DNA of 64,000 bases from a bacterium (GTDB taxonomy: Bacteria > Verrucomicrobiota > Kiritimatiellia > CAIKKV01 > CAITUY01): assembly GCA_037143175.1 (NCBI GenBank), contig JBAWZF010000001.1:106199-170198 (forward strand), given 5' to 3'. Below, piece after piece: positions 10,762 through 63,380 of this stretch. Positions within the stretch are counted from its first letter, which is position 1, and each line of letters starts with the position of its first letter. The translations under genes and the position numbers were made by a program. The notes beneath the pieces were generated by a model. That model worked only from the letters and a program-made list of their open reading frames with translations, ran no database searches and had not been told where the DNA came from.

Positions 10762-11604
10762 TTATGTCAGGGTTATCGATCCCGCCGGATCCGCGTTCAC
10801 GCTGATCGTTTTAAGGATATGGTGGCACAGGAGAGGAAAGTCATCTTGCAACCGTTTTTCCAGATCTCCCAACAGATGCTGTTCATTAATGGCGATGGCA
10901 CTTACGAGCACCAGCGCGCCTGCCTGGGCGGCGCACATGAGTGCCTCGAACTCCTCCGGCGTTTTTGGATTGCTGACATACATCAAATCAGGAGTGAGGA
11001 AAAGTCCGTTGCGGATTCCCTCCGAAAGGGTCGGGACATCAATGCCCACCTCGACTTGAATCACGATGGAGTTCCGATGTTTCAGAAGGAATGACAGGTG
11101 TTGTTCCAAAACGTAGATCACCATGTTTCTAGAATCGTTCACGCGGGCCAGTGTAGCGTACATGAAACGCATCAAGGTGTCGGGTGAAGGGCCGGTAAAA
11201 AGGACAATTCCTCCACCGGATTGAGCCAGGGCCTCGTCGACCTGCGAAAGTTGAGCTGGCTGAGCGAGAAGGTTTTCCAGCTTAGGGACGTCAAAAGGCA
11301 TACGCTGGATTGAGACAAAATCACTACCCCGTTGCGTCAGATAATAAATTTTGAATCGGCCCTGATTCGGCATGCCGAAAGCAAAAACCCCTTGTTTGCC
11401 CAAATCTGAAGGCCCCGTACGCCGGGCGTGACTTGCAAAGATCGCCAGCGTGTCACGGATATCCTCAGGGGTAAGTACCGTGTTGAGGACGATCTTGAAT
11501 TGCGTCCCCACTTTTTCGACGGGGGGGGCGCCCGCAATGAGTAATACCTGTGAAAATCGATCCGGCTCGCCTAGGTAAGCCAGAATTTTGTTGGCATAAT
11601 TCAT
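10762..11604 (-). CDS. PilT/PilU-like protein with degenerate Walker A and Walker B (predicted catalytically inactive type IV pilus retraction ATPase paralog)
   Basis: It is collinear with PilT. The N-domain is present. The P-loop position reads [16 protein letters not shown] where canonical PilT has GLILVTGPTGSGKSTT. The Walker B position reads [10 protein letters not shown] instead of EDPDVILVGE. Conserved spacing and hydrophobic pattern are retained (EVGIDVPTL..., [12 protein letters not shown]). Confidence 0.6.
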
Positions 11605-13307
11605 TTGGTTCCTCCTGCGGCTTTCAGTCCTGAATCCTTGAGTGGTACGATCTGGTTGAAGACCGGGTACGAGTCGCGGTGGTCCTGGCTATCGGCGATG
11701 AAGTATCCCTTGCGCTCGAACTGGAAGCGGGTTCCAGGGGTGGCTTTCGCCAGGGCAGGTTCAACTACAGCCTTAACGATTTTCAAGGAATCCGGGTTCA
11801 GGTTGGTTTTATAATCCATACCTTCGGGCACCTCTTCGGGATGTTCGTCTTTAAACAGACGGTCATAGATCCGGATTTCAGCCAGTATTCCCTCCGAGGC
11901 GGATACCCAATGGATGGTGCCCTTGACTTTGCGGCCATCCGGAGCATTGCCGCCCCGGGTGGCGGGGTCATAGGTACAGCGAATCTCGGTAACCAGGCCA
12001 GTTACCGGATCCTTGGTGAAGCCGGTGCAGGTGATGAAATAGCTGTAACGCAGCCGAACTTCCTGGCCAGGGGCCAGGCGGTAATACTTTTTAGAAGACT
12101 CTTCGCGGAAATCATCACGTTCAATGTAGAGTTCGCGTGTGAAGGGGATGATCCGTACACCCGCATCCGGGTTCTCAGGGTTATTGATTCCTTCGAGGAA
12201 ATCGACCTGATCCGCCGGGAAGTTATCAATGACCACTTTGATCGGATCCAGCACCGCCATGGCGCGGTTAGCGGATTGGTTAAGTTCCTCCCGCACACAG
12301 AACTCAAGCAGGGCGATGTCCGTGTAGCCGTCAAATTTGGTGACGCCAATCCGTTTGCAGAAGTGGCGAATGGACTCTGCCGTGAAACCACGGCGGCGCA
12401 ATCCGGCAACGGTTGGCATGCGCGGATCGTCCCAGCCCTTGACATGGCCATCACGCACCAATTCCAGCAGTTTACGCTTGCTGAGAACTGTGTAAGTCAG
12501 GTTCAGGCGGGCAAATTCAATTTGGCGGGGTGGGGTGGGGTTCATGTGCAATTGCTGCAAAACCCAGTCGTAGAGAGGGCGGTGCACTTCAAATTCCAAG
12601 GTGCACAGGGAGTGGGTAACGTACTCAATGGCATCTTCGATCGGGTGGGCAAAATCATAAGTGGGATAGATGCACCATTTGTCGCCGGTTCGGTAATGAT
12701 GCGCCCTCATGATCCGGTAAATCACCGGGTCACGCATATGAAGGTTGGGTGACGACATATCGATTTTGGCACGGACGCAAAGGGTTCCGTCCTGAAATTC
12801 TCCCGCTCTCATACGGTTGAACAGGTCCAGACTTTCCTCCGCCGGCCGATTCCGGAAGGGACTCTCTTTTCCCGGCTGGGTGGGGATGCCACGGTAGTCT
12901 TTCCATTGCTCCTGGGTCAGCTCGCAGACATAGGCGCCTCCCTTGCGGATTAAGGCGCAGGTGCAGTCGTACATCCGTTCAAAGTAATCAGCCGAGAAAT
13001 AAAAATGCTCGCCCCAGTCGAAGCCGAGCCAGCGTACGTCGTTTTTGATGCTCTCGACGTATTCCATGGTTTCTTTGGAAGGATTGGTGTCGTCCATGCG
13101 CAAATGACATTCGCCACCAAATTCGAGGGCGGTCCCGAAGTCAATGCAGATGGCCTTGGCATGACCGATGTGCAGGTAGCCGTTGGGTTCCGGAGGGAAA
13201 CGGGTGACCACCCGGGAATGTTTGCCGCTGGCAAGATCCTCGCTGATGATATCTCGGATGAAATCTGAGGGTACAGGTGTTTCTGGAGTGTGCATGGTTT
13301 TTTCCAT
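11601..13307 (-). CDS. glnS: Glutamine--tRNA ligase
   Basis: 568 aa. The HIGH motif is [16 protein letters not shown] and the KMSKS region is near LSKRKL. A GlnRS-type C-terminal anticodon-binding beta-barrel region is present. Confidence 0.95.
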
Positions 13308-13322
13308 TGGAATGGCTAGACT

Positions 13323-14624
13323 TTATAGGATATTGATGGAATTCGTCAGTCGTGCCAGGGTCCGTTCACGACCCATAATGGCGAGGATTTCGTAAATGCC
13401 AGCCCCGATAGCAACCCCGGTGACGGCTACACGGAGGGGTTGGTTTAGTTTTCCTTCTCCGGACCCTATGGCGGATTCCGCCTGCCGGATGGCTTGCTGA
13501 ATGCTGGCCTCGGAGAAATCAGAGTTCGTCAAGGCCGTGCGAAGCGCCTCCAGCGCAGGCTTGACGCCCTCTTTCCTCAGCGTTTTCTGCACGGATTTCT
13601 CGTCGTATTCAATCGGATCGACAAAGAAGTACTTCCAGGTTTCGCATTGGGGATAGAGTGGGGTGCGGGACTGCATCAACTTGCAGACAGACATGAAGAT
13701 CTCTTCATTGATAGTTTTGCCCCAGTCCAACTTTTCAAGATGTCGGCGAACCTCAGCCGCAAAGACGGTGAGGGGGAGTTCAGCGAGATAGAGTCCGTTC
13801 ATATGCGTCAGTTTCCGGATATCCATCTGGGCCGGGCCGCTTCCGATGCGGTCCAGGGTGAAGGCCGAGATGATTTCCTCGCGGGTCATTTTTTCGCGAT
13901 CTTCGCCCGGGGACCAGCCCAGCAGGGTCAGGTAATTAAACAGGGCTTCAGCCGAGATGCCCATGTCCCGGAACTGCCCGACATAGGCGGCGCCATCCCG
14001 TTTTGAATAAGGTTTTCCCTGCGCATTGACAATCATCGGCAGATGGGCGTAGTGGGGAACCGGAGCGCCCAGGGCCTGATAGAGGGCGACATGACGGAAG
14101 GTGTTTTCAACATGATCATCGCCCCGGATGATATGGGTGATGTTCTGGGTAATGTCGTCCACCACGTTGGCGAGATGAAACACGGGGGAGCCATCGGAAC
14201 GGACGATGACGAAATCCTTTACGTCGGCGGCCTTCTTTTTCAGGTCGCCCTTGACTTCATCGTGGAAGGCCATATCGGTGCCGGGCATCCGGAAGATAAT
14301 GCATTCACCCTGGCCGGTGCCGCCTTTGTCCTCTTTATACGCATGTCCGTTTTGCAACAGTTTTGCCGCCGCCAACCGATGCTGTTCGTGCTGGGTGGAT
14401 TGGTAGAGGGGGGCTTCGTCAAAGTTGAGGCCCAGCCATTCCATTGCTTGTAAAATGGTTTGAACTGCCTCAGGTGTCGATCGCTCACGATCAGTATCCT
14501 CAACACGGAGGAGAAACTGGCCGCCATTATGACGGGCAAAAAGCCAGTTAAAAATGGCAGCCCGGATATTTCCAATGTGAACCTGCCCTGTCGGGCTGGG
14601 GGCAAAACGTACGCGAACACTCAT
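13323..14624 (-). CDS. gltX: Glutamate--tRNA ligase (short form)
   Basis: 433 aa. The HIGH motif is FAPSPTGQVHIGNIRAA and the KMSKS-equivalent is GKPYSKRDG. A C-terminal anticodon-binding domain is present. Confidence 0.9.
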   Translation of the reverse strand: MSVRVRFAPSPTGQVHIGNIRAAIFNWLFARHNGGQFLLRVEDTDRERSTPEAVQTILQAMEWLGLNFDEAPLYQSTQHEQHRLAAAKLLQNGHAYKEDKGGTGQGECIIFRMPGTDMAFHDEVKGDLKKKAADVKDFVIVRSDGSPVFHLANVVDDITQNITHIIRGDDHVENTFRHVALYQALGAPVPHYAHLPMIVNAQGKPYSKRDGAAYVGQFRDMGISAEALFNYLTLLGWSPGEDREKMTREEIISAFTLDRIGSGPAQMDIRKLTHMNGLYLAELPLTVFAAEVRRHLEKLDWGKTINEEIFMSVCKLMQSRTPLYPQCETWKYFFVDPIEYDEKSVQKTLRKEGVKPALEALRTALTNSDFSEASIQQAIRQAESAIGSGEGKLNQPLRVAVTGVAIGAGIYEILAIMGRERTLARLTNSINIL

Positions 14625-14930
14625 TTTCGATTCCTTTACTTTCTGAAAAAATACTGACTTAAATTATCATAAGACCTATTTGGGCGCAACGGATACCGCC
14701 TGTGGAGTCATGGCGGACTCTACCGACTTACGCGAGTTTCTTGAAGAAGATGGCCTGGGATAGGGATTTCCCTGACGGAAAAATCAGGGAAACCCTCATA
14801 TCTTTCATCCCTGTAAGTGTTAGATTTTTTTATTCGAATGCCATTCTGCTTGACTGAGGTGCGAATGGGGAGTTATACCAAACTCATTGGTAATGTCGCA
14901 TTCAGTGGGTGGTCGTCTGGGGGAAGCACA

Positions 14931-15287
14931 ATGGACGATAGCTGTATAGATGAAAAGGCTTTAGAGGTTCTGAAAGAACTTGGCGGCGTCAGTTTTGTCG
15001 TCCAGATGATTGACGTTTTTCTGGCCTATGTTCCCAAAGTTCTTGTCGAGGCTCGGAATGGCCTCGCCGTGGGGAATCTTGAACCGGTGGTGCGGTTGGG
15101 GCATTCCCTGCGATCAAGCGGGCGTAACATAGGGGCGCAGAAGATTGTGGAACTGGCGCAAAGCGTCGAATCGGCCAGTCGTGCGGGCCAGTTAATTCCT
15201 TTACCCGTGCTTCTGGATCAGTTGGAAGAAGCATTTCTTCAGGCGAAAGTCTGCCTTGAAGAAACAAAAGCGCGATTATTGTCGTAA
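14931..15287 (+). CDS. Stand-alone Hpt (histidine phosphotransfer) domain protein
   Basis: The Hpt signature GHSLRSSGRNIGAQKIVELA matches the HxLKGSSxxxGA pattern. The ATG at 14931 follows GGGGGA. The track start of 14817 is probably too far upstream. Confidence 0.7.
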   Translation: MDDSCIDEKALEVLKELGGVSFVVQMIDVFLAYVPKVLVEARNGLAVGNLEPVVRLGHSLRSSGRNIGAQKIVELAQSVESASRAGQLIPLPVLLDQLEEAFLQAKVCLEETKARLLS

Positions 15288-15317
15288 CATCAGATGGGTG
15301 GATGAGGGTTCTTCGGC

Positions 15318-16244
15318 ATGAGAAATGACGTCATGGTCTTTACTCTCGACGAGCAGCGGATTGCACTCCCGCTTCCAGGGGTGGCTCAACTCATCCGTTC
15401 TGCAGTGGTTACACCCCTGCCTCAGGCGCCTGCCAATGTGTTGGGCGTGATCAGCGTACAGGGGGAAAGCGTCCCGGTTCTTAACCTGCGCCAGCTTCTC
15501 GGTTTGCCTGAACGTGGGATCGGGCCGGACGCTCAGTTCATCATTATGATAACTGGGCGGCGCCGTCTGGCTTTGGTGGTGGATGAGGTCAAGGGGGTTA
15601 TGGACTTCCCCGAGCAGGACCTGACGGCGGCGGAGCCGATTCTGCCGGGGTTGGCGTTTGTGAAAGGGGCGGTCCGAACCCGCGATGGGACGATTCTGAT
15701 CAAGAATCCTGATTTATTCCTTTCGTTTTCCGACGAACGACTGTCGGATGAGTCGATACCATCCCCGGTAAAAACCCCGGAACCGCCGACTCCGGCTCAG
15801 ACGGGGTTTGACGTCATGGTCTTCACTCTGATGAATGAACATTACGGGATTGAAACGGCCCATGTGCGGGAAGTTTACCCGGCAATGGAAGTGACTCCCA
15901 TTCCCTGTACCCCCCATTTTGTGGCCGGAGTGATCAATGTGCGGGGGGATATCATCGCGGTGATCAACCTTAAAACCTATTTTGAACTTCCAGTGTCTGA
16001 GTCTTCAAGTTCAGGCGAGGTCATCATTGTGGAGGCGGGTGACTCTCTCTTTGGCGTTTTGGCCGATAGCACCCTCGGCGTATCTTTCGTTTCTCTCGCC
16101 GATTTTCAGGCGCCGCTCCCCGACTTATCCGGTATTCGGGCGGAGTCCTTGAGGGGGGTTACCAAGGATCAGATGTTTCTTCTCGATATTCCCAGGATGT
16201 TGGCAGATAAGAAACTATGGGTACACGAGGAGGTTGCATTATGA
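15318..16244 (+). CDS. cheW: Chemotaxis coupling protein with two tandem CheW domains
   Basis: There are two repeats of the MVFTL...VxTPxP...GVISVxG...VxNL CheW pattern, one in residues 1-140 and one in residues 165-300. Confidence 0.85.
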   Translation: MRNDVMVFTLDEQRIALPLPGVAQLIRSAVVTPLPQAPANVLGVISVQGESVPVLNLRQLLGLPERGIGPDAQFIIMITGRRRLALVVDEVKGVMDFPEQDLTAAEPILPGLAFVKGAVRTRDGTILIKNPDLFLSFSDERLSDESIPSPVKTPEPPTPAQTGFDVMVFTLMNEHYGIETAHVREVYPAMEVTPIPCTPHFVAGVINVRGDIIAVINLKTYFELPVSESSSSGEVIIVEAGDSLFGVLADSTLGVSFVSLADFQAPLPDLSGIRAESLRGVTKDQMFLLDIPRMLADKKLWVHEEVAL

Positions 16245-18481
16245 ACAATCAACGACAGAATCGGAATGGATCGGCCATGGGCGTTTGGTTGAAGGGGTTT
16301 ATGTTGGGGCTGGCAGGGGTGGCGGTTCTGCTGGCAAGTCCTGTCTTGGCGGAAGAGACTGGAAAGGCGCAAACAGCGGGTTCGGGCCAGGAACCAAAAA
16401 AGTTGAAATATATGACGCTCGACGAATTGATGAAGGTGGAGGTTGCTACGGTTACCACCGCCTCCAAGAAGGAGGAAAAGGCCACCGAAGCTCCGGCCAC
16501 CGTGATTGTGATCAGTGCCGCGGACATCAGGATGCGCGGCTATTCCACCCTGAAGGACGTGCTCCGCGACCTTCCCGGGATGGAAACCCGGGAATACTAT
16601 TTTGCGGAAGACGGCACGGAGGTTTCCGTGCGCGGCATTGTCGGTAACAACAAGATTGTGGTGTTGGTCAATGGCATGCGTGTCAATCCTCCCGGTGGCG
16701 AGAATTTTCCGTTTCGCAGTGACTTCAGTGTGAGGAACGCGGAGCAGATCGAGGTGATCTATGGTGCGGGCTCGACGCTTTACGGCCGCGATGCGGTGTC
16801 TGCCGTCATCAATATCATCACGAAGAAACCCGTGGAAGGTGTCACCGGGGAAGCGGGAGTGGCTGGGGGGCTTCATAATGAACGCGAAGCCTGGGGTTCG
16901 TTTGGTGGCATTCTTGACAAGGCCGGGCTCGTCCGGCTGAGCGGCATGATCCAGCACCACGACTCCGACCTGACGCGGCTTGACAGGGAATATCCGGGCT
17001 GGTGGCAAACCTATCGTGATGTCGCCAAAGCGAAGGGCTCCGGCTTGACGCCCACGCGAAGCGACTACGGTTTGAGCACTTTCGTACGGCTTGAAGCCGC
17101 TGACTTTTCACTGCAAACCTGGTATCGGGATTCAAGGCGCAGCAGTTCAGACAGCATGGCTCCCGCGTTCGGGTTTATTCCGGAGGCGTTGTGGGAGGAC
17201 TCCTCCTCCGTGACGGAGGCCAGATACCTGACCCGCTTTACCGACAAGGTGTGCCTGGACTCTGCCGTGACTTTCAACCGCTACGAGGTCGATCCGTCAA
17301 CCCGTTATGTCTGGGAAAATCCAGTGGACACGAAGTCATGGTATTACAATGACTACAAGTATGCGCGCGGGATATCCTATTCTGCCGAAGAGACCCTCAA
17401 GGTGGAATTCTCCAGGGACGTTTCGGTGCTGGCTGGCGTCGATGCCGCCCACTACGATATCGTGCCGAAATGCACGGTACCCGGCGGGGCGCATGGCTCC
17501 ATCGGGGACATCATGGAGGAAGGTGGGAGCTTTGAATATTACAGGGCGGACGGGAGTGGTCCCTATGGGATCCCCCGGGTCTATAATCAGAAGTATGAGA
17601 TGTACGGGGCTTATCTGGAAGGTGACTGGAGGGTTCTGGAGCGGGTGAAGGTCCTAGGCGGCCTCCGTGTGGATAAAGACACGCGGATCGACGATCCGTC
17701 CCTCACTCCGCGTGCGGGCGCCCTTTGGAATGTGAGCGATGAGCTGACGGTAAAATACAACTACTCCACCGCCTACATTTCCCCGGCCGCGTATTTTGCA
17801 GACAACGTCTACATGAACAATTACCAGATCAGTACGGCAAACCCCGGCTTGGAGCCTGAAAAATCGAGGACCCATGAGGTTGACTTAAACTATGCTAAAA
17901 AGGACTTCCAGCTCGGGTTAGCCCTGTATCATGGCGACCAGGAAAACCTGATCCAGATTTCCGACCGGAATTTGCCGCTGAACGTCATTGAAACCGTTTA
18001 TCTGGATTCAGCGCGCACCCAGCCAATAAACCTGATCCGGTCGGCCAATGGTGGCACAAGCTCCAATCAAGGGTTGGACTTATACGGCCGGGCGAACTTC
18101 GGGTCAGTCAGCCCCTGGTTCTCTTATTCCTACACGACTTTTGAAATGGAGACCGACGGTAAGATGACCGGTTTGCCTGGCATTTCGCATCATAACGGGC
18201 GTGTGGGGTTGACCTGGGCGGTTACGTCAAAACTGTTCGTCACGCCGAGCCTTGTGATCAGGTCTACTCCTGAAAACGTGCAGGCCGGGGCATTGGAACA
18301 CGAACTGGAAACACCCTGGCAGGCAAACGTGTACGCGTTGTATCATCTCTCGAAGTCTTTGGATCTCTATGCGGATCTGCGTAATGTTACCGATCATCAC
18401 TATGCCTTGAACGGGCTTTACGGCACGGCTGTTCCCCAGGAAACCTTGAGTGGCGTCATAGGAGTGAAAGCAACCTTCTGA
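16241..18481 (+). CDS. TonB-dependent outer-membrane receptor (plug + 22-strand barrel) encoded inside the che operon
   Basis: The signal peptide is MGVWLKGFMLGLAGVAVLLASPVLA. The plug motifs are ATVIVISAADIR and IEVIYGAGSTLYGRDAVSAVINIITKKP. The C-terminus ends ...IGVKATF with a terminal aromatic residue. The ATG overlaps the cheW stop (ATGA). Confidence 0.85.
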   Translation: MNNQRQNRNGSAMGVWLKGFMLGLAGVAVLLASPVLAEETGKAQTAGSGQEPKKLKYMTLDELMKVEVATVTTASKKEEKATEAPATVIVISAADIRMRGYSTLKDVLRDLPGMETREYYFAEDGTEVSVRGIVGNNKIVVLVNGMRVNPPGGENFPFRSDFSVRNAEQIEVIYGAGSTLYGRDAVSAVINIITKKPVEGVTGEAGVAGGLHNEREAWGSFGGILDKAGLVRLSGMIQHHDSDLTRLDREYPGWWQTYRDVAKAKGSGLTPTRSDYGLSTFVRLEAADFSLQTWYRDSRRSSSDSMAPAFGFIPEALWEDSSSVTEARYLTRFTDKVCLDSAVTFNRYEVDPSTRYVWENPVDTKSWYYNDYKYARGISYSAEETLKVEFSRDVSVLAGVDAAHYDIVPKCTVPGGAHGSIGDIMEEGGSFEYYRADGSGPYGIPRVYNQKYEMYGAYLEGDWRVLERVKVLGGLRVDKDTRIDDPSLTPRAGALWNVSDELTVKYNYSTAYISPAAYFADNVYMNNYQISTANPGLEPEKSRTHEVDLNYAKKDFQLGLALYHGDQENLIQISDRNLPLNVIETVYLDSARTQPINLIRSANGGTSSNQGLDLYGRANFGSVSPWFSYSYTTFEMETDGKMTGLPGISHHNGRVGLTWAVTSKLFVTPSLVIRSTPENVQAGALEHELETPWQANVYALYHLSKSLDLYADLRNVTDHHYALNGLYGTAVPQETLSGVIGVKATF

Positions 18482-18483
18482 TT

Positions 18484-19110
18484 ATGAATACACACATCCA
18501 TCCCGAGATCATTCTGTCGCGGACCGCCGGAATCCGGCCCGGCCAGCGGATGGTTGCTGCTGTCCTGCTGGCGGTGATGGGCTGGTTTGGTCTTCCCGCA
18601 TTTACTGTAACGGCTGCTTCTGAAGTATATAAGGAATACGAGGTCAAAGCCGTGTTTCTCTTTAACTTCGCCCAGTTCGTGGAATGGCCACAGGAGGCCT
18701 TTCAGGATGCCGCTACCCCCGTGTGCATCGGCGTGCTGGGGGATGATGCTTTTACCGACATTCTTGAAGGGATGGTAAAAGGGGAGACGGTCAAAGGGCG
18801 GTCCCTGGTGATCAAGAGGCTTCGTGATATGGCCGATGTCGCGACATGCCACGTGCTGTTCGTCAGCCGGTCAGAGGAATACCGGTTGTCAAAAATTTTC
18901 AGTCTTTTGAAAAATGCGGGTGTTTTAACCGTGGGGGAGTGCAAAGATTTTGCGATCCGGGAGGGAGTCATCAATTTCTTCCTTCAGGGGAATAAAATCC
19001 GGTTTGAAATCAATCCTGAGGCGGCGCGCAAGAAAGGACTCAAGATCAGTTCGCAGTTGTTGAGTCTCGCCAGAATTATTGAGATGGAACCCCCCAAGGA
19101 GAGGCGCTAA
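18484..19110 (+). CDS. YfiR/DUF4154 family periplasmic protein
   Basis: The signal peptide is followed by EYEVKAVFLFNFAQFVEWP, a CxGVLG motif, CHVLFVS, and the C-terminal INFFLQGNKIRFEINPEAARKKGLKISSQLLSLARI. This is collinear with P. aeruginosa YfiR (CVLG, CHLLYL, VSFEANLDSIARSGVRVNPSVLKLAR). Confidence 0.8.
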   Translation: MNTHIHPEIILSRTAGIRPGQRMVAAVLLAVMGWFGLPAFTVTAASEVYKEYEVKAVFLFNFAQFVEWPQEAFQDAATPVCIGVLGDDAFTDILEGMVKGETVKGRSLVIKRLRDMADVATCHVLFVSRSEEYRLSKIFSLLKNAGVLTVGECKDFAIREGVINFFLQGNKIRFEINPEAARKKGLKISSQLLSLARIIEMEPPKERR

Positions 19111-19114
19111 ACAC

Positions 19115-20707
19115 ATGAACTGGTTCCGGAATCTATCAATCAAGGGTAAGTTGATCCTGGCCATGCTGTTGACCAGCACCACCATCCTGGTGCTGGCTTG
19201 CACGGCGTTTGTCGCCTACGAGATGAATACGTTTCAGCGTGGGTTGAATCTCGAGATGAACGTTCTCGCCGATGTGTTGAGCCGTAACAGTACCGCGGCC
19301 TTGCAATTCGACGACCCGGTCGCTGCTGAAGTCACCCTCCACGCCCTGCAGGCGGAGCCGCATGTGGTTGTTGCCTGCCTTTACAAGGGAAATGGTGGAC
19401 GGTTTGCCTCCTATCACCGTAATGGTGACAAGGTGATGCCGCCCGAAAAAGCGGGTCCGGATGGATCCGTTTACCGCGCTGATCACCTGGAGATCATTCG
19501 GCCTGTCATGATGAATGACAAGCGGGTTGGATCTCTTTATCTCCGGGTGGATCTAGAGGGGATTCGTGAGCGTATTAACTTGTATGTCAGCATAGTTATC
19601 TTGGTGCTGATCAGCGCCTTTATCCTGACATTGGTCCTGGCGGCGGCGCTCCAGCGCGTGATTTCAAAGCCCATCCTGACCCTGGCGGACACCGCCAAGA
19701 TCATTAAGGAACGGAAAGATTATTCCGTTCGCGTTGAGGTTTATGGACAGGACGAAATAGGCCAGCTTACAGATGCGTTCAACCAGATGCTGGGGGAAAT
19801 TCAGGCGGGCCAGGAGACGATTCAGAAGGCGAACAAGTCGTTGCTGACTCAGGCCGGCCAGATCATGGATGGCGTCGGAATTTTGAGTTCATCCGCCAAA
19901 TCGATCCTCGGGTTCAGCAGCCAGTTGGTGGCCAATGCCGCCGATACCGTCACATCCGTGGTCGAGACCACGACCACTGTGGACGAGGTGCGGCAGACCG
20001 TGAAGTTGACAACCAGGAAAGCAGGACAGGTGGCCGAAGGCTCGGCCAACGCGAACCAAATCTCGCAGGCAGGTAAGAAGGCGGCCGAGGAGGCTGCGGA
20101 GGGGATGCGCCGTATCCGCACGCAGATGGATGCGATTGCCACCAGCATGCTCCGCTTAAGCGAGCAGAGCCAGACCATTCAGCAGATCATTGCGACGGTC
20201 GAGGACTTGGCGGCCCAGTCCAACGTGCTGGCGGTGAACGCCTCTATCGAGGCGGCCAAGGCCGGTGAACAGGGAAAAGGATTTGCCGTTGTGGCCCAGG
20301 AGGTCAGAAGACTGGCGGAACAGTCCAAGCAGGCCACGTCTCAGGTCCGGACGATCCTGAAGGAGATTCAGGCCGCCACTTCGATTGCCGTGATGGCCAC
20401 CGAACAGGGGACGCGTGTGGTGGAGACAGGAGTCAAACAGTATGCGGTGGCAGGAGAATCCATTCTTGCCCTGGCACGAAATGTCATGGAGGGAGCCCAC
20501 GCGGTGACGCAGATTGCCGCGTCAAGCCAGCAGCAACTGGCGGGAATGGATCAGGTGGCATCGGCCATTCAGAGTATCAAGGTGGCGGCGGATCAGAATG
20601 CGGATAACGCGAGGGAGTTGGAAACCTCCGCCCAACACCTTAACGAACTGGGCCAGAAGTTGAGGGAACTCGTCGTGCATTATGAAGGGCAGGAGACCGC
20701 CACGTGA
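19115..20707 (+). CDS. Methyl-accepting chemotaxis protein with YfiN-type (CHASE8-like) periplasmic sensor, HAMP and MCP signalling domain
   Basis: TM1 is at residues 12-34. The periplasmic segment VLADVLSRNSTAALQFDDPVAAEVTLHALQAEPHVVVACLYKGNGGRFASYHR parallels the YfiN periplasmic domain (ISYTVEAAVVFGDAQAAEESLALIASSEEVSSAIVYDRQGQALASWHRE). TM2 and a HAMP domain (ISKPILTLADTAKII...DEIGQLTDAFNQMLGEI) follow. The MCP core reads AAQSNVLAVNASIEAAKAGEQGKGFAVVAQEVRRLAEQS. Confidence 0.85.
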   Translation: MNWFRNLSIKGKLILAMLLTSTTILVLACTAFVAYEMNTFQRGLNLEMNVLADVLSRNSTAALQFDDPVAAEVTLHALQAEPHVVVACLYKGNGGRFASYHRNGDKVMPPEKAGPDGSVYRADHLEIIRPVMMNDKRVGSLYLRVDLEGIRERINLYVSIVILVLISAFILTLVLAAALQRVISKPILTLADTAKIIKERKDYSVRVEVYGQDEIGQLTDAFNQMLGEIQAGQETIQKANKSLLTQAGQIMDGVGILSSSAKSILGFSSQLVANAADTVTSVVETTTTVDEVRQTVKLTTRKAGQVAEGSANANQISQAGKKAAEEAAEGMRRIRTQMDAIATSMLRLSEQSQTIQQIIATVEDLAAQSNVLAVNASIEAAKAGEQGKGFAVVAQEVRRLAEQSKQATSQVRTILKEIQAATSIAVMATEQGTRVVETGVKQYAVAGESILALARNVMEGAHAVTQIAASSQQQLAGMDQVASAIQSIKVAADQNADNARELETSAQHLNELGQKLRELVVHYEGQETAT

Positions 20708-20709
20708 AC

Positions 20710-22482
20710 ATGGATTCGGATCAACTGGGTGCCGGGAAGTACACGACTTTTGTACGGGTGTCGGGTGGGGTTGTTTTGGCTTGGGCTTTTTTTGTTTGGA
20801 TCGGGTGGCGTTTTGATTATCCGGGCCTGACAAGCGTCTTGCCCGGTTGCAAAGCCATGAGCCCCCTGTCGGCGGTTGCGTTCTTTTTTGCGGGGAGTGG
20901 GCTGTTTTTGTGGAATGTCGCCTGTCCGGCCCGAAAACGGGTGCATCAGGTCGCCATCGGCCTGGGGGCGGCAGTGGTGCTGATCGGACTGTTCCGCCTG
21001 CTGGAAATTGTGTTCGATAAGGAATGGGGTTTTAATGCCCTGTTTCCCCTGCAGGTGACCCACATGGCTCCCCCTACGGCGGTTGCGTTCATCCTGCTCG
21101 GGTTCGCCTTGTGCAGCATGGGGGTTGGAACATGGCGTGGCATCAGTCTGGTCGAATGTTTCGTCCTGGTGCCGATTTTAATCGCGTTGCTGGTTTTGGT
21201 GGGGTACGGGTATCGGATACAACCCTTGTATTCCGTCAGTTCAGCAGTACCCGTCTCCTTCCCTTCGGCGCTGCTGATCATGATCCTTTCAGCGGGCATT
21301 CTCTATTCCTGTCCGGATCGGGGCCTGATGGGGCTGGTGACCCTCAAAACGGCGGCAGGGCGTATGGTGCGCCACTTGATGACGGGTAGCATGGTTCTTT
21401 TGTTCACCTTGGGCTGGCTTCGTCTGGAGGGGGAACGCTCGGGTCTATACAGTTCGGATATTGGATTTGCCCTGTTCATGATGTCGAATATCGTGCTTTT
21501 GGGAATGCTCATTTTCCGGAATGCCAGTCAGCTTCGCCGGGCGGAAATTCTGCATGAAGTGGAAGATGACACCCTGCGCAGGGAACACAAGGAATTGGAG
21601 GGCCATGCCGAGGAACGGACGCAGGATCTGGCACGGGTGGTGGCCGAACTGAGCAATGGTATTGCTATGCTCTTGGACGTAGCTCGTGATGTCATGACCG
21701 TCAGCAACCAGATGAGTACGGGGGCCGCCGAGACGGCCACGTCTGTGGCACAGACCGCCACCACTTTTGAAGAGGTCCGCCAGACCGTGCGAATGACCAC
21801 CCATGATGCGGGACAGGTTGCCTCGAGTGCCTTGCAGGCGGCCCAGTTTTCCCAGGAGGGGAGGAAATCCACTGAGGAGGCGATTGCCACCATGCAGCGC
21901 ATACGGGACGAAATGGATGCCATTGCCGATAGTATGATGCGGCTGAATGACCAGACTCAGTCCATTGGTCAGATTATCGACGCCGTGAATGCCCTCGCTG
22001 CGCAATCCAACCTCCTGGCTGTCAATGCCGCCATCGAGGCGTCGAAGGCAGGGGAACGAGGCAAGGGATTTTCTATTGTTGCTCAGGAGGTGAGGAACCT
22101 GGCGGATCAGTCCCGGCGGGCGACGCACCAGATCGGGATGATTCTGAATGACATCCAGAAGGCAACCCACCTGTCAGTCACGGCGATCGAGAACGGTCGT
22201 AAGGCGGTGGAAAGGGGTGTGTCTCAATCTGTGCAGACCGGCCATTCCATTGAGACGCTTGCCGCCAGCGTGAACTCCGCGGCGGAGGCGGCATCCCATA
22301 TCGCGAATGCCAATCAGCAGCAGCTCTATGGGGTGGATCAGGTATCGGTTTCCATGACGAACATCAGGGAGGCGACGACCAACAGCCTTTCCTGTTCCCG
22401 GCAGATGGAAGTCGCCGCACAGCATTTGAAGGAACTGGGACAGAAACTTGAGCAAGTGGTTGTCCAATACAAGGTCCCGTAA
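20710..22482 (+). CDS. Methyl-accepting chemotaxis protein with polytopic (about 7-8 TM) membrane-embedded N-terminal sensor, no HAMP
   Basis: The N-terminal ~270 aa are hydrophobic with multiple TM segments. The MCP core reads AAQSNLLAVNAAIEASKAGERGKGFSIVAQEVRNLADQS. The alternative GTG start at 20704 overlaps the upstream stop. Confidence 0.85.
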   Translation: MDSDQLGAGKYTTFVRVSGGVVLAWAFFVWIGWRFDYPGLTSVLPGCKAMSPLSAVAFFFAGSGLFLWNVACPARKRVHQVAIGLGAAVVLIGLFRLLEIVFDKEWGFNALFPLQVTHMAPPTAVAFILLGFALCSMGVGTWRGISLVECFVLVPILIALLVLVGYGYRIQPLYSVSSAVPVSFPSALLIMILSAGILYSCPDRGLMGLVTLKTAAGRMVRHLMTGSMVLLFTLGWLRLEGERSGLYSSDIGFALFMMSNIVLLGMLIFRNASQLRRAEILHEVEDDTLRREHKELEGHAEERTQDLARVVAELSNGIAMLLDVARDVMTVSNQMSTGAAETATSVAQTATTFEEVRQTVRMTTHDAGQVASSALQAAQFSQEGRKSTEEAIATMQRIRDEMDAIADSMMRLNDQTQSIGQIIDAVNALAAQSNLLAVNAAIEASKAGERGKGFSIVAQEVRNLADQSRRATHQIGMILNDIQKATHLSVTAIENGRKAVERGVSQSVQTGHSIETLAASVNSAAEAASHIANANQQQLYGVDQVSVSMTNIREATTNSLSCSRQMEVAAQHLKELGQKLEQVVVQYKVP

Positions 22483-22484
22483 AA

Positions 22485-24713
22485 ATGAACAGGCAGGAGG
22501 AAGAACTGTTGACGGCACTGAGGGCGGAATTCGCCGTCGAGGCCGTAGAGTATCTCCGCGCGATCACGGATGAACTCCTGGAATTGGAAAAGGGGCTGAA
22601 TCCCGACCGTCAGACCGTGGTGGTGGATAGCATCTGTCGGCAGATCCACAGCCTGAAAGGGGAGTCCCGTGCGGTTAATTTTCAGGACATTGAGACCATT
22701 TGCCATGCCCTGGAAAGTGTTTTGCTACCCTGGAAACCGCGTGGGTCTACGCCTCCACCGGGCGCCTTTGATACGCTGCACGAGGCACTGGATTCGATTC
22801 GGGCGATGCTTGCAACAGAAGGGGCGATGGGGCGACGTCAGCGTGATGAGGTGGTGGCCAAACTCGCGCTGTTCGTGCCAGCACCTGTGGCTGTTCCCGC
22901 CCCCCCGCCGCGGCCTGAACCTGTCCACCCTGAAACAGAAGAGGTTAAACTGCCGTCGGCGGAGGGAGGGGAAACGCGGCCTGAAGAAACCGTGCGGATG
23001 CCGGTGGCGCGGCTCGAGACGCTCCTGCTGCAATTGGAGGAGATGCTGGAGGTGAAGCTCACCCTGAATCAGCGGGCTGATGCCCTGCGGGCGGCGGTGG
23101 CCCTGGTTGAACAGGGAAAACGACAGGCGGTGAAAATTAACACTGAAGTCCGGTTGCTGGCAGGGGCTCAGGCCTGCCTGCCAACCCTCTTGGACGAGTT
23201 GCTGGAACGTCATAAAACCACGGTCAGCACACTCGGGGATGCCCTTGCCAGCCTCGCGAGGGGGGCAGATCAGGATGCCCATACGGTGAGCCTCCTGGTT
23301 GATAACCTTCTTGGCCAATCCAAGCGACTCCTGATGCTGCCTTTCAATACCCTGTTGGGGATTCTTCCAAAACTGGTAAGGGATCTCTGTCGTGATCAGG
23401 GCAAGGATGCGGAGATCGTCATCCGGGGGGGGGATATTGAGATCGACAAGCGAATCCTCCAGGAGTTGAAAGACGCCGTTATACACCTGACCCGCAACTG
23501 TGTGGACCACGGGATCGAGACGGTGGCGGTGCGGGAGCAGAAAAACAAGCCGGGTCGAGGAACCATTACCGTGGAGATCCTGCCGTTAGATGCCGGTAAG
23601 GTGGAACTGGTGATTCGGGATGATGGGGCAGGAATTGATGTCGAGGCGGTGAAAAAAGTAGCCATCAAACTGGGCGTGATTTCGGCCGCTAGCGCGGCGC
23701 ACCTGTCCCGGGACATGGCGTTAGATCTGATATTCCGGTCTTCTGTTTCTACCAGCAAGGCTGTGACCGCTGTCTCGGGACGCGGGCTGGGGATGGCGAT
23801 CGTGAAGGATCGGGTGGAAACGCTCGGTGGCCGGATAACGGTGGAAACCAGCCCGACTATGGGGAGCACATTCAGGATCACGCTGCCCCTTACCTTGACC
23901 ACATTTCGCGGTACCTTTGTGGACGCCGCTGGCCAGTGGTTCATTCTGCCTTCGGCCAGCGTGGATCGGGTCGCCCGGGTTCGGCGGAACCAGATCACGA
24001 TAGTGGACAGCCGGGAAGTGCTCTCTCTGGACGGTCACACCCTTGCGTTCGTGGAGCTGGCGGATGTGCTGGGGTTACCTTCGTTGGGCAGGTCGCCAAT
24101 GTATAAACCACTGGTCTCGATAGGGATTGTGGGTGTCGGGGATAAGCGAATCGCCCTTGGGTTTGATGAAGTTCTGACTGAGCAGGAAGTGCTGGTGAAG
24201 TCATTTATGAAGCCTCTTTCCCGGGTTCGCAATGTGGCTGGCGCAACGGTGCTTGCCTCGGGCCGTGTGGTGCCGATCCTCAATGTGGCTGACCTGCTAA
24301 AGTCAGCTGCCGTCCTTTCCAGTGCCCCCGCCCCCACCGCCCTGGAGCGGCAAAAGTCCCTCCTTTTGGTTGAGGATTCCATCATCTCGCGGGTGTTGTT
24401 CAAGTCCATTCTGGAGTCTGCCGGGTATGTGGTGAAAACCGCAGTCGACGGGGAGGGGGCGTGGGAGGTGATGAAGAAAGAAAATTTTGATGCCGTGGTT
24501 TCTGATATTGACATGCCAAGGCTGAACGGGCTTGAGCTCACCTCCCGGATCCGGCATGATAAACGCTTCGGTGATACACCCGTAATCTTGGTTACCGGGC
24601 TGTCGTCGCCGGAAGACCGTGTTCGCGGGTTAGAGGTGGGCGCTAACGCGTATATTGCCAAAAGCAGCTTCGAACAGAGCGACCTCCTTGAGGCGCTCAG
24701 GAGGGTGGTGTGA
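22485..24713 (+). CDS. cheA: CheA-type histidine kinase fused to C-terminal receiver domain (Hpt-dimerization-HATPase-CheW-REC hybrid)
   Basis: The Hpt motif is HSLKGESRAV. The HATPase_c motifs are HLTRNCVDHGIE, DDGAGID and GRGLGMAIV. A CheW-like domain (TFRGTFVDAAGQWFILP) is followed by REC (LLLVEDSIISR...VVSDIDMPRLNG...AYIAKS). Confidence 0.9.
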   Translation: MNRQEEELLTALRAEFAVEAVEYLRAITDELLELEKGLNPDRQTVVVDSICRQIHSLKGESRAVNFQDIETICHALESVLLPWKPRGSTPPPGAFDTLHEALDSIRAMLATEGAMGRRQRDEVVAKLALFVPAPVAVPAPPPRPEPVHPETEEVKLPSAEGGETRPEETVRMPVARLETLLLQLEEMLEVKLTLNQRADALRAAVALVEQGKRQAVKINTEVRLLAGAQACLPTLLDELLERHKTTVSTLGDALASLARGADQDAHTVSLLVDNLLGQSKRLLMLPFNTLLGILPKLVRDLCRDQGKDAEIVIRGGDIEIDKRILQELKDAVIHLTRNCVDHGIETVAVREQKNKPGRGTITVEILPLDAGKVELVIRDDGAGIDVEAVKKVAIKLGVISAASAAHLSRDMALDLIFRSSVSTSKAVTAVSGRGLGMAIVKDRVETLGGRITVETSPTMGSTFRITLPLTLTTFRGTFVDAAGQWFILPSASVDRVARVRRNQITIVDSREVLSLDGHTLAFVELADVLGLPSLGRSPMYKPLVSIGIVGVGDKRIALGFDEVLTEQEVLVKSFMKPLSRVRNVAGATVLASGRVVPILNVADLLKSAAVLSSAPAPTALERQKSLLLVEDSIISRVLFKSILESAGYVVKTAVDGEGAWEVMKKENFDAVVSDIDMPRLNGLELTSRIRHDKRFGDTPVILVTGLSSPEDRVRGLEVGANAYIAKSSFEQSDLLEALRRVV

Positions 24714-24716
24714 ACC

Positions 24717-25787
24717 ATGGATTCGCAGATGATCAAAATTCTAATTGTGGATGATTCTCCCATCTTCCAGAAGCTCTATACGCTACTGTTCCGGGCTGAT
24801 CCCGAACTCCGGGTCATAGGAATCGTCAACGATGGCGCGGAGGCGCTTGCGTTCGTCGCGAATCAAAGGCCGGATGTGATTTTGATGGACCTCCAGATGC
24901 CCGTGATGAACGGGTATGAGGCAACGCGGCGCATTATGGAAACGGATCCCATCCCGATTGTCATCTGTAGCGCCAGTTCCCAGCACGATGATGTCAACAA
25001 GACGTTTCAGGCGGTGGAAGCTGGGGCCGTGGCATTTCTTAACAAGCCAGCCGGTCCGGGGCATCCGGATTTTCAGAGCTCCGTGGCCAATATGATACAG
25101 ACCATCAAGCTGATGGCGGAGATCAAACAGGTGAAACGGATGCGGCGTCCGGCACAGGCGAGGGAGGAAGGCACCCGGCTGATGCCCGGTGCGATGTCGT
25201 TTGCCAACGCTCCCCGCGTGGTTGCCATCGGTGCCTCGACCGGGGGACCACTGGTGCTGCAAACGATCCTTGGGTTTTTGCCGAGGAATTATCCTGTGCC
25301 CCTGTTGATTGTTCAACACATTGCCGAGGGCTTTGTAAAAGGTTTTGCGGAGTGGTTGGGCAGTACCACGGGTTTTCCAATCCACATTGCAGAACATAAT
25401 GTCCGGGCATTGCCCGGGCATGTCTACCTTGCTCCAGACAATCTCCATCTGGGGATGTCGGCGGGTGGGACCCTGGTGTTGAGTGGGGATGCCCCAGAGA
25501 ATGGCCTTCGTCCGGCGGTATCTTACCTGTTCCGGTCCGTGGCCCTGACCTTCGGCCCTTCTGCCGTGGGCGTTTTACTGACTGGTATGGGAAAGGATGG
25601 TGCCCAGGACTTGAAGCAACTGAAGGAGAGGGGTGGGATCACCATCGCTCAGGACAAGGAGAGTTCACTGATCCATGGGATGCCGGGTGAGGCTATTCGT
25701 CTGGAGGCAGCGCTTCATGTGCTCCCGCCGGAAAAAATTTCCGCCCTGTTGGTGCAATTGGTGAACTCGAGAGGAGTGCTGCCATGA
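24717..25787 (+). CDS. cheB: Chemotaxis response-regulator protein-glutamate methylesterase
   Basis: The REC domain reads ILIVDDSPI...ILMDLQMPVMNG. The CheB catalytic domain reads VVAIGASTGGPLVLQTIL and IVQHIAEGF, with an HxxxD-type His. Confidence 0.9.
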   Translation: MDSQMIKILIVDDSPIFQKLYTLLFRADPELRVIGIVNDGAEALAFVANQRPDVILMDLQMPVMNGYEATRRIMETDPIPIVICSASSQHDDVNKTFQAVEAGAVAFLNKPAGPGHPDFQSSVANMIQTIKLMAEIKQVKRMRRPAQAREEGTRLMPGAMSFANAPRVVAIGASTGGPLVLQTILGFLPRNYPVPLLIVQHIAEGFVKGFAEWLGSTTGFPIHIAEHNVRALPGHVYLAPDNLHLGMSAGGTLVLSGDAPENGLRPAVSYLFRSVALTFGPSAVGVLLTGMGKDGAQDLKQLKERGGITIAQDKESSLIHGMPGEAIRLEAALHVLPPEKISALLVQLVNSRGVLP

Positions 25788-26953
25788 ACACACCGCTCAA
25801 AGCTCTCATCATTGAGGATTCTGAAAGTGATGCGCTTCTGTTACTTGCGTATTTGCGGCATGGGGGATATGAGCCTCAGTTTCGCCGGGTTGATAACGCG
25901 GCGGACCTTGCAGATGCCCTCAATCAGCAGACCTGGGATATTGTTTTCTCCGACCATAATATGCCGGGATTCAGCTCCACGGCGGCCCTTGCAATGGTCA
26001 GGGCCGTCAATGTGGACATTCCTTTTCTGATCGTGTCGGGGAGCATCGGTGAGGAAGTGGCTGTGGCTGCGATGAGGGCTGGCGCTCAGGATTACCTGAC
26101 CAAAGGACATCTGGCGCGCCTGGTTGCGGCGGTGGATCGGGAGCTGAAGGATGCGGAAGACCGGCAGGGCCGCCGGGCGGCGGAACGTTGTTTACTGGTT
26201 CGGGAGGAGGAACTTCGCATTGCGAAAGAGATCCAGCAACAGCTCTTTCCCGCCATCTCCCCGGCGTATGCGGGCTATGATATGGCGGGGGCATCATGTT
26301 CTGCCGAAGCCACGGGTGGTGATTATTTCGATTTTATTGCCGGTCCACACGGGGAGATTTTTGTCGTGGTGGGGGATGTTACCGGGCATGGCCTCGGACC
26401 CGCCCTGCTGATGACGGATGTCCGGGCTTATTTGAGGGCATTGGTTCTCTCGAACCGGAGCCTCGAGGACATTATGGTTCAGGCAAGACATCTCCTGGTG
26501 GAAGACCTTGGCAGTGACCGGTTCATCACGCTGCTCTTTGCCCAACTTAGTCCCCAAACCGGTGCGTTGGATCACATTAATGCCGGTCACCCGACCGGCT
26601 ATGTGATTGCGCATGAGGGCCATGTCCGTGAAGAATTGGTGGCGACGGCGCCAGCATTGGGCATTGATGCGGAGAACGAACGCTTGGTTTCCGCCCGGGT
26701 CTTGCTACAAAAAGGGGATCTGGTGTTTCTCCTCACCGATGGGATATTGGAATCGACGTCTCCTACCGGTGAAGAATTCGGAGTGTCTCGCGCACTGGAG
26801 CTGGTCAAAGGGGCTCGACACCTTCCCTCCGCGCAGATCATTCAACTGCTGTTTGATGAAGTTCGACGTTTCAGCGGCGCCGATACCCTTCAGGATGACA
26901 TTACGGCGGTGGTGATCAAATGCCAGAATGAGAACCATTGCATCCCGGCATAA
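25784..26953 (+). CDS. Response regulator with PP2C-type (SpoIIE/RsbU-like) serine phosphatase output domain
   Basis: The REC domain reads ALIIEDSESD...VFSDHNMPGFS. The PP2C/SpoIIE motifs are GGDYFDF, VVVGDVTGHGLGPALLMT and LTDGILE. It overlaps the cheB stop (ATGA). Confidence 0.85.
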   Translation: MNTPLKALIIEDSESDALLLLAYLRHGGYEPQFRRVDNAADLADALNQQTWDIVFSDHNMPGFSSTAALAMVRAVNVDIPFLIVSGSIGEEVAVAAMRAGAQDYLTKGHLARLVAAVDRELKDAEDRQGRRAAERCLLVREEELRIAKEIQQQLFPAISPAYAGYDMAGASCSAEATGGDYFDFIAGPHGEIFVVVGDVTGHGLGPALLMTDVRAYLRALVLSNRSLEDIMVQARHLLVEDLGSDRFITLLFAQLSPQTGALDHINAGHPTGYVIAHEGHVREELVATAPALGIDAENERLVSARVLLQKGDLVFLLTDGILESTSPTGEEFGVSRALELVKGARHLPSAQIIQLLFDEVRRFSGADTLQDDITAVVIKCQNENHCIPA

Positions 26954-63154: not shown

Positions 63155-63166
63155 GGTGACTCCGGC

Positions 63167-63380
63167 ACGGGCAGTGGCCAGTAGGCAGTGGGCAGTGAGC
63201 AGAGAGCAGTGGGCAGTGGGCAGTAGGCAGTGGGCAGTGGGCAGTGAGCAGTGAGCAGTGGCCAGTGGGCAGTGAGCAGTAGGCAGAGAGCAGAGAGTAA
63301 AAGAGGGGTATTCGAGCTCTGTCGACTGCCCACTGCCCACTGCCCACTGGCCACTGTTAACTGTTCACTGCTCACTGGCC
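63167..63380. repeat. Heptanucleotide tandem-repeat inverted array: about 18 direct copies of GGGCAGT-like units, a 28-bp spacer, then about 8 inverted copies (ACTGCCC-like)
   Basis: Positions 63167-63297 read cagtggc cagtagg cagtggg cagtgag cagagag cagtggg and so on. The spacer taaaagaggggtattcgagctctgtcga follows. Positions 63326-63380 read ctgccca ctgccca ctgccca ctggcca ctgttaa ctgttca ctgctca ctggcc. The element fills the whole DUF58-BatA intergenic region. Confidence 0.9.

Follow-up and report, generated by a model that had tools for sequence, protein, structure and literature searches.

A putative Wsp-like chemosensory operon linking a YfiR-type envelope input to a predicted Ser/Thr-phosphatase output in an uncultured Kiritimatiellia bacterium

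Non-motility Che-like pathways are common in genomes, and very few of them have a defined input or output. The question of what such a pathway might sense and what it might control is raised by nine co-directional genes on the forward (+) strand, at positions 14931-26953 of a 64,000-nucleotide (nt) stretch (positions 106,199 to 170,198) of contig JBAWZF010000001.1 in the Kiritimatiellia assembly GCA_037143175.1. This whole stretch of DNA was analyzed and is referred to as the window. Based on a listing of open reading frames (ORFs) and on Pfam, the genes encode, in order, a stand-alone Hpt protein, a CheW-CheW fusion, a TonB-dependent outer-membrane receptor (TBDR), a YfiR-like protein, a methyl-accepting chemotaxis protein (MCP) with CHASE8 and HAMP domains (MCP1), a polytopic MCP (MCP2), a hybrid CheA with a receiver domain (CheA-REC), CheB, and a receiver fused to a PP2C-type phosphatase (REC-PP2C). 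We consider it moderately probable that these genes make up a chemosensory operon of the Wsp-like ('alternative cellular function', ACF) type, with an envelope-related input and with protein dephosphorylation, not motility, as its output.

The order and strand of the genes in the Pfam analysis were identical to those in an initial annotation of the same DNA, and the start and end coordinates given there (14931 and 26953) are correct. Four-nt overlaps were present at three of the eight junctions (ATGA at 16241, GTGA at 20704, and ATGA at 25784), spacers of 2-4 nt at four, and a 30-nt spacer between Hpt and CheW. The tight packing described earlier therefore stands. The claim that ATGA or TGATG overlaps occur at nearly all junctions was too strong, and no TGATG was present at any of them. 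The start codon of the Hpt gene (ATG at 14931) is preceded by GGGGGAAG. This packing is compatible with one coupled transcript.

Kinase core, relatives, and the route of phosphotransfer

The stand-alone Hpt protein (14931..15287, +; 118 aa; Pfam Hpt, 2.2e-11) has a phospho-accepting His58 in the motif GH58SL, which is invariant across five orthologs. The CheW-CheW fusion (15318..16244, +; 308 aa) contains two Pfam CheW domains. The hybrid CheA-REC (22485..24713, +; 742 aa) has the Pfam architecture Hpt-HATPase-CheW-REC, in which the P1 motif HSLKGES contains His55, a Pro-rich linker takes the place of P2, P5 is CheW-like, and the receiver carries Asp674. The CheB methylesterase/deamidase (24717..25787, +; 356 aa; Pfam REC-CheB_methylest) scored 340.7 with one NCBIfam model (cutoff 342) and 313 with a second (cutoff 293), and it was aligned end to end with solved CheB structures, with D58, Ser174 of the GASTGG motif, His201, and Asp294 all in place. 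When the alignments of Hpt, CheB, and REC-PP2C are taken together, all catalytic and phospho-acceptor residues are intact.

The locus thus combines CheA, CheW, MCPs, and CheB with a multidomain response regulator as output, in the absence of CheY or CheZ, which is the core of an ACF system. Window-wide Pfam scans, which took in all non-overlapping ORFs of at least 70 aa, detected no CheR, single-domain CheY, or STAS protein in the 64 kb, and nothing was found by a CheR-seeded tblastn of the window. The lack of CheR and single-domain CheY described for the operon therefore holds across the entire window. The CheR expected of an ACF/Wsp-like pathway was found, fused to TPR, in the related loci L013/L041 and L015.

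Relatives of the operon were identified in metagenomes and are designated by locus number. CheA homologs with 50-87% identity were all encoded in the same cassette, and the surrounding genes differed each time. The cassette was present in at least six diverged lineages, i.e., the window, L005/L016, L012/L018, L013/L041, L014, and L096, and more distant, partial cassettes were present in L017 and L025 (the latter shorter). Since diverged lineages with dissimilar flanking genes have kept one gene order, the arrangement reflects more than chance. TBDR, MCP1, and REC-PP2C were the best-conserved members. Lake-metagenome contigs and a 235-kb contig of a metagenome-assembled genome (MAG; GCA_964512545.1) encoded an identical REC-PP2C protein. 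For individual proteins, some of the nearest homologs with a named source belonged to MAGs of Lentisphaerae and Verrucomicrobia, which makes an origin in the PVC group likely, and the CheA relatives at about 48% identity included hybrid CheA-REC proteins of Verrucomicrobia and Betaproteobacteria. A scan of genome contigs with CheA-REC yielded one true relative, MAG ELA208. All carriers found were uncultured and came from anoxic lake and soil metagenomes.

The region encoding CheW and CheR was variable among these loci. The CheW-CheW fusion is found in the window and in L005, two separate CheW genes are present in L012, a single CheW in L014 and L096, and CheR-TPR together with one CheW in L013/L041. 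The nearest outgroup, L015 (CheA 50% identical), has the Wsp-like order CheW, CheR-TPR, CheW, MCP, CheA-REC, CheB, and a receiver-histidine kinase (REC-HK) protein, and the N- and C-terminal halves of the window CheW-CheW protein matched the two CheW genes that flank cheR in L015. The simplest reading of these alignments is that an ancestral, Wsp-like CheW-CheR-CheW arrangement existed and that cheR was deleted in most lineages. Since the sister lineage L013/L041 retains CheR-TPR, the loss of cheR in cis appears to be lineage-specific; the occurrence of CheB without CheR, correctly described for the window, is not a trait of the family.

In the mechanism that we favor, phosphorylated CheA (His55) would transfer its phosphoryl group directly to the receivers of CheB and REC-PP2C, and the CheA-borne receiver and the stand-alone Hpt would form an auxiliary branch acting as a relay, as a sink, or as the site at which further hybrid kinases feed in, as for HptB. 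The main rival to direct transfer is a strict four-step relay, from CheA His55 to Asp674 of the CheA receiver, then to Hpt His58, and finally to Asp57 of REC-PP2C, with Hpt as the sole donor to the phosphatase regulator. This relay is rather unlikely. In its favor, each of the four modules is there and has its acceptor residue, and Hpt is the first cluster gene in every lineage for which upstream sequence was available. Another locus, L020, places the same YfiR/CHASE8 input on a hybrid histidine kinase, followed by Hpt (43% identical to the window Hpt), REC, and REC-SpoIIE. There is also a precedent in Pseudomonas aeruginosa, where HptB donates to HsbR, a protein with REC, PP2C, and kinase domains (PMC6482189).

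A natural variant speaks against the strict relay. In L096:10001-11893 and L097:1061-2953, the core of the receiver has been cleanly removed in frame from the CheA of an otherwise complete cassette, and the last 17 residues of the protein are kept, which provides a natural test of the relay. Both loci have nonetheless kept Hpt (68% identical, with the His intact), CheB, and REC-PP2C, so the kinase-borne receiver is not required wherever Hpt is present. The short CheA homologs P0126 and P0136 (614-630 aa) likewise gave no REC match in Pfam. The hybrid kinase of the Wsp system probably phosphorylates its regulators directly, which also counts against an obligatory relay. Direct transfer from P1 to REC-PP2C is favored because L096 keeps Hpt, CheB, and REC-PP2C alongside a receiver-less CheA; the multi-step relay suggested in the initial annotation is plausible but not obligatory.

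The L020 locus is itself of interest as a two-component twin of the cassette. It occupies L020:1789-8093 and encodes a DUF4154/YfiR-like protein, a hybrid kinase with the architecture CHASE8-HAMP-GAF-PAS-HisKA-HATPase-REC-REC, Hpt, REC, and REC-SpoIIE, without Che proteins.

A probable sensory input at the envelope

The three genes that follow CheW-CheW encode the components of a probable sensor. The TBDR (16241..18481, +; 746 aa) has Pfam Plug and TonB_dep_Rec barrel domains, no STN signalling extension, and a hydrophobic signal segment at its N-terminus based on hydropathy. The periplasmic YfiR-like protein (18484..19110, +; 208 aa; Pfam DUF4154, 1e-45) scored 171.6 against the NCBIfam model NF053591 ('TOL_0243 family YfiR-like'; cutoff 125), aligned over its full length with solved P. 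aeruginosa YfiR structures (6e-7), and has a signal-like segment at residues 24-42 (hydropathy). MCP1 (19115..20707, +; 530 aa; Pfam CHASE8, HAMP, and MCPsignal) has the layout of a transmembrane (TM) segment, a periplasmic CHASE8 domain, a second TM segment, HAMP, and a signalling domain, with the TM segments predicted from hydropathy at residues ~12-33 and 160-178 and CHASE8 between them. Residues 8-230 of MCP1 scored 230.1 against NF053592 ('sensor HK, YfiR-like protein-associated'; cutoff 194) and also matched DgcN/YfiN (1e-26). The NF053592-type sensor module, which adjoins the YfiR-like gene, is thus carried in the window by an MCP transmitter and not by a histidine kinase.

A metagenome scan performed with an alignment of five YfiR-like orthologs yielded 80 loci, which were annotated using the window proteins as seeds. 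The gene directly 3' of the YfiR-like gene encoded a CHASE8 protein in 55 of the 62 loci with room for one, and a TBDR gene was located upstream in 21 of the 35 loci with at least 900 nt of upstream sequence. The CHASE8 module was fused to histidine kinases (at least 15 loci), to MCPs (7 loci), and to other transmitters. Curated models for the trio, named after Thalassolituus oleivorans genes, are held in NCBIfam release 20, and the literature search found nothing on the TBDR/YfiR-like/CHASE8 trio apart from a proteomics mention of TOL_0244. Together, the TBDR, the YfiR-like protein, and the CHASE8 sensor make up an input module that is widespread and that is the most distinctive feature of the locus. 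The TBDR and YfiR genes had been listed in the initial annotation; that they constitute a sensory unit with the CHASE8 domain of MCP1 was not recognized there.

By analogy with YfiB-YfiR-YfiN, the trio would act as a trans-envelope sensor in which the YfiR-like protein binds the CHASE8 receptor and sets its signalling state. Events at the TBDR, which would stand in the place of YfiB, may alter this binding, whether through ligand occupancy, TonB-dependent transport, or the state of the envelope. The predicted YfiR-CHASE8 step is well supported by the comparisons described above. Support for a signalling role of the TBDR is weaker, making this the weakest link of the model. Redox-sensing disulfides have been reported for P. 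aeruginosa YfiR. They are probably not a shared feature here, because Cys122 is the only cysteine of the window protein conserved among its orthologs.

It is unlikely that the TBDR and the YfiR-like protein are co-transcribed passengers, i.e., a nutrient-uptake receptor and a periplasmic protein, while the MCPs sense ligands alone. Such a role would agree with the resemblance of the TBDR to an ordinary transporter (plug, barrel, and no STN), with its score of 92.9 bits against the NCBIfam TOL_0244 equivalog model (below the cutoff of 645), and with the discussion of the related TBDR TOL_0244 as an alkane uptake protein (PMC6304351). A link between TOL_0244-type receptors and alkane sensing (OmpS) rests on a quoted similarity of 40% and is a lead only (PMC6304351). 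However, the order TBDR-YfiR-CHASE8 was kept in every full Che-type lineage and in many loci of the histidine kinase type, and the pairing of YfiR with CHASE8 parallels that of YfiR and YfiN, which has been established by experiment. Among the proteins of the cassette, the TBDR is one of the most conserved, with 57-95% identity between lineages; the corresponding values are 50-87% for CheA and 49-90% for the YfiR-like protein. The conservation of the TBDR is unusually high for a TonB-dependent receptor and fits a constraint imposed by protein partners and not by a nutrient ligand alone.

MCP2 (20704..22482, +) has an N-terminal module of about eight TM segments and a signalling domain; MCPsignal was the only Pfam match, and the first 290 aa were without one. 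The N-terminal domain (window 20704-21594, ~290 aa) had 9154 relatives among 1.84 billion cluster representatives, 4827 of them at E<=1e-10; this number was obtained from a full HMMER search, a word-index search having given 2 matches. In these relatives, the module was always N-terminal and was fused to PAS-HK, GGDEF, or MCP. An AlphaFold2 (AF2) model of the domain had a predicted local distance difference test score (pLDDT) of 86.8 and a predicted template modeling score (pTM) of 0.81, and it had no fold match in the PDB (best template modeling (TM) score 0.31). The domain looks like a large uncharacterized sensor-domain family, and it may provide the array with a second, membrane-embedded input.

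Both MCPs have complete signalling domains, as had been reported. Their cytoplasmic hairpins are equal in length and align with each other without gaps, and the two receptors could therefore share one array. Each hairpin arm is 14 aa longer than that of the 36H receptor Tsr. The aligned span equals that of the 40H receptor PcaY (283 vs. 283) and comes close to that of the model for CtpM, likewise a 40H receptor, and the alignment with the 44H receptor TM1143 is almost gapless near the tip. Based on domain content, MCP1 and MCP2 would assemble with CheW-CheW and CheA. An A-S-S-Q-Q-Q-L-A methylation site was kept in the MCPs of all lineages compared, and methylation-site residues showed no systematic difference between the cheR-containing lineage (L013) and lineages without cheR. 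Phosphorylated CheB would deamidate or demethylate the MCPs as feedback, with cheR having been lost from the cluster in this lineage.

The probable phosphatase output

The last gene of the operon encodes the REC-PP2C response regulator of the SpoIIE/RsbU type (25784..26953, +; 389 aa; Pfam REC and SpoIIE, 5.5e-43), which scored 147.6 bits against PF07228 (cutoff 25). Among 35 homologs with 61-82% identity, the receiver residues D57, S85, and K107 were invariant, as were the PP2C residues D180, D198 (in GDVTGHG), D319-G320, and D371-D372. The loss of metal-binding aspartates that would argue against a phosphatase output was thus not seen, and because the catalytic aspartates are invariant, REC-PP2C is likely an active phosphatase. 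Every Che-type locus with enough downstream sequence ended in REC-PP2C. Orthologs with 61-67% identity also followed ordinary histidine kinases in Lentisphaerae-like contigs, and since they follow both Che genes and histidine kinases, REC-PP2C appears to be a conserved output hub for different sensors.

The AF2 model of the protein had a pLDDT of 89, and its best full-length fold match was P. aeruginosa RssB (3e-22). The PP2C domain superposed on the RsbU-type domain of Rv1364c with a root-mean-square deviation (rmsd) of 3.0-3.4, and SiaA, SpoIIE, and RsbX were also matched by Foldseek. The PP2C-like domain of E. coli RssB is degenerate and serves to hand a sigma factor over to a protease. A comparable role of REC-PP2C as a non-catalytic adaptor would agree with the finding that its best full-length fold matches are RssB proteins, but it is very unlikely given the metal-binding aspartates and GDVTGHG motif that are invariant in the 35 homologs and the alignment of the PP2C domain with that of Rv1364c over the GGDxxD, GDVxGHG, and TDG motifs.

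Under the favored mechanism, phosphorylation of Asp57 would switch the Mn/Mg-dependent PP2C domain, which would then remove phosphate from a Ser/Thr phosphoprotein whose gene lies elsewhere. The textbook candidate for this substrate would be an anti-sigma antagonist of the STAS type. Neither a STAS nor an anti-sigma gene was found beside the phosphatase in the window or adjoining any of the related clusters, no protein with an HATPase_c_2 match was encoded by any window ORF, and the genes 3' of REC-PP2C differed in every related locus. As no STAS or other conserved gene follows REC-PP2C, the substrate is probably unlinked, and the partner-switching or sigma-factor target proposed in the initial annotation remains a guess.

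Two further observations concern REC-PP2C genes of other loci. In L008:4778-11780 and L010:6381-11801, orthologs with 63-67% identity follow a double-SBP_bac_3 histidine kinase and extra receivers, not Che genes, and are themselves followed by a conserved, apparently secreted protein of 199-210 aa with a Pfam Toxin-deaminase match, of which no homolog was found in the window. A fusion of CheB and REC-PP2C in L012:12266-14476 was considered as Rosetta-stone evidence and was discarded; the otherwise 99.96% identical L018:16272-18483 differs by a single-nucleotide indel and has separate genes, and the fusion is probably an assembly or strain frameshift.

An ordinary chemotaxis pathway that serves flagella or type IV pili and has its CheY and CheR genes at other sites is highly improbable, with the search of this genome confined to the 64-kb window. 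Its core would likewise be CheA, CheW, CheB, and MCPs, as in any Che system. The Pfam scans of those 64 kb found neither CheY nor CheZ and no flagellar or pilus gene, the housekeeping flanks vary from lineage to lineage, REC-PP2C always comes last in the cluster, and a hybrid CheA, a Wsp-like outgroup, and CheR-TPR are hallmarks of ACF systems. The ACF assignment made in the initial annotation was likewise borne out by the hybrid CheA-REC, by the multidomain regulator in the position of WspR, by the absence of CheY, flagellar, and pilus genes nearby, and by the Wsp-like nearest outgroup and the CheR-TPR of the sister lineage.

Several points weigh against the Wsp-like, envelope-to-phosphatase reading of the locus. 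It rests on synteny, homology, and conserved residues. Scans for sigma-70 promoters and terminators gave counts equal to those in shuffled sequence and were uninformative on operon structure and hence on a single transcript. Neither the window nor the surroundings of any related cluster yielded a PP2C substrate. Upstream TBDR genes were absent from 14 of the 35 YfiR-like loci, which bears on the signalling role of the receptor, as does its score below the TOL_0244 cutoff. The poorly conserved cysteines of the YfiR-like protein, the hybrid kinase twin L020, and the HptB precedent belong here as well.

A more specific version of this reading is put forward tentatively. Binding of a ligand to the TBDR, or its TonB-driven movement, would be passed through the YfiR-like protein to the CHASE8 receptor, and the cooperative Che lattice would translate such events at the cell surface, with CheA, Hpt, and REC-PP2C as intermediates, into the state of Ser/Thr phosphorylation of a target encoded at an unlinked site. 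In lineages from which cheR has been lost, CheB would serve solely as a deamidase. If this is true, CheB would bring about a one-way desensitization that is reset by new receptor synthesis instead of a reversible adaptation.

Surroundings of the operon and comparison with known systems

The operon is preceded by an intergenic region of 306 nt (14625..14930, +), located between a divergent GltX-type gene and Hpt and presumed to contain the promoter and 5' untranslated region. A search of this region against Rfam gave no match, and the Rfam search of the window found no RNA element, so control by a riboswitch is not evident. According to Pfam, the upstream flank consists of the divergent GltX-type and GlnS genes and the downstream flank of genes for a SurA-like peptidyl-prolyl isomerase, KsgA, and MutS, all of which are housekeeping genes. 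The upstream pair (window 11601-14624, -) are adjacent class-I Glx-tRNA synthetase genes divergent from the Che-like operon; the GlnS-type synthetase has 568 aa, and the GltX-type synthetase has 433 aa, with its catalytic-domain match in two separate stretches. Elsewhere in the window, an ORF of 2267 aa without a Pfam match (50812-57615, -) lies alongside 57531-63902 (-) and adjoins a Bat-like 'aerotolerance' cluster made up of BatA/VWA and DUF58 genes. Residues ~800-2267 of this ORF consist of 20-32% Ala and 16-19% Gln, no tandem repeats were present in the DNA, and the AT skew of -0.55 at 52-56 kb results from the Ala/Gln-rich composition.

Each part of the operon is already known, as are Che clusters with Ser/Thr-phosphatase outputs and, at the annotation level, the trio in combination with histidine kinases. 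What appears to be new is the combination of the trio placed on a chemoreceptor in a Wsp-like operon, a stand-alone Hpt, a PP2C without a partner in cis, and the frequent loss of cheR. The cassette extends a poorly studied trio from histidine kinases to chemoreceptors, and the locus is informative on how non-motility Che systems gain inputs and outputs. Both ends are offered in a testable form, with a YfiR-type periplasmic switch and an outer-membrane receptor on the input side and an intact PP2C on the output side. The natural variants, which differ in the presence of cheR, in that of the CheA receiver, and in the number of CheW genes (one or two) and which include the histidine kinase-based twin L020, are ready-made experiments. 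Since all carriers found are uncultured, tests must be biochemical or heterologous.

Among known response regulators, P. aeruginosa RssB (PDB 3EQ2/3F7A) is most similar to REC-PP2C in its full-length fold, with a layout of REC, a long helix, and PP2C. In contrast to the window protein, with which it shares ~21% identity, RssB is an orphan regulator encoded beside an anti-sigma antagonist and outside any Che operon. Closer in genetic context are the clusters of Methylococcus capsulatus and Desulfovibrio salexigens, which are Che-like and have a response regulator composed of REC and a PP2C-type phosphatase. These are known only from table entries that give no function (PMC3447774 supplement), in a study in which CheR-TPR marks ACF clusters, some of them with REC-Ser/Thr-phosphatase regulators (PMC3447774).

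In gamma-proteobacteria, Che clusters of the ancestral F7 'stage 1/2' type are also linked to a serine phosphatase and carry anti-sigma antagonists in addition (PMC7184735), and S. oneidensis Che1 has been linked to CrsR/CrsA (PMC9855816). These clusters, which include S. oneidensis Che1 and V. cholerae cluster III, resemble the window locus in their connection to a serine phosphatase and have been proposed to control a stress response and not motility. Unlike the window locus, they have their own CheY, CheR, CheD, 36H Aer2-like receptors, and STAS anti-sigma antagonists in cis, and CrsR has an extra anti-sigma/kinase domain that REC-PP2C lacks. In the P. aeruginosa HptB-HsbR-HsbA pathway, a stand-alone Hpt feeds a REC-PP2C protein with hybrid kinases upstream (PMC6482189), as could occur here. 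That system differs in the third, kinase/anti-sigma domain of HsbR, in the adjacent STAS partner HsbA, and in its inputs, which are orphan hybrid histidine kinases and not a Che array.

On the input side, the closest parallels are YfiBNR (TpbB) and the TOL_0242-0244-type trio, in which a YfiR-family gene is located directly 5' of a CHASE8/YfiN-type sensor gene and is accompanied by an outer-membrane partner. The partner in the window is a TBDR instead of the OmpA/Pal-like lipoprotein YfiB, and the transmitter is an MCP instead of GGDEF or a histidine kinase; Pfam detected no YfiB-like or GGDEF gene in the locus, where the TBDR and the MCP occupy those places. The cysteines of the YfiR-like protein, apart from Cys122, set it apart from YfiBNR as well.

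As a whole, the operon is most readily compared with the Wsp system of Pseudomonas (WspA-F and WspR), which belongs to the ACF class. The window locus differs from Wsp in having a PP2C output instead of GGDEF, in the absence of cheR, in the extra stand-alone Hpt, and in the presence of two MCPs and of TBDR and YfiR-like genes inside the operon. Shared by the two are a hybrid CheA-REC followed by CheB and then by a multidomain response regulator, two CheW modules, and an input related to the membrane or envelope instead of a taxis chemoeffector, and the Wsp-type CheR-TPR is carried by the sister lineage L013 and by the outgroup L015.

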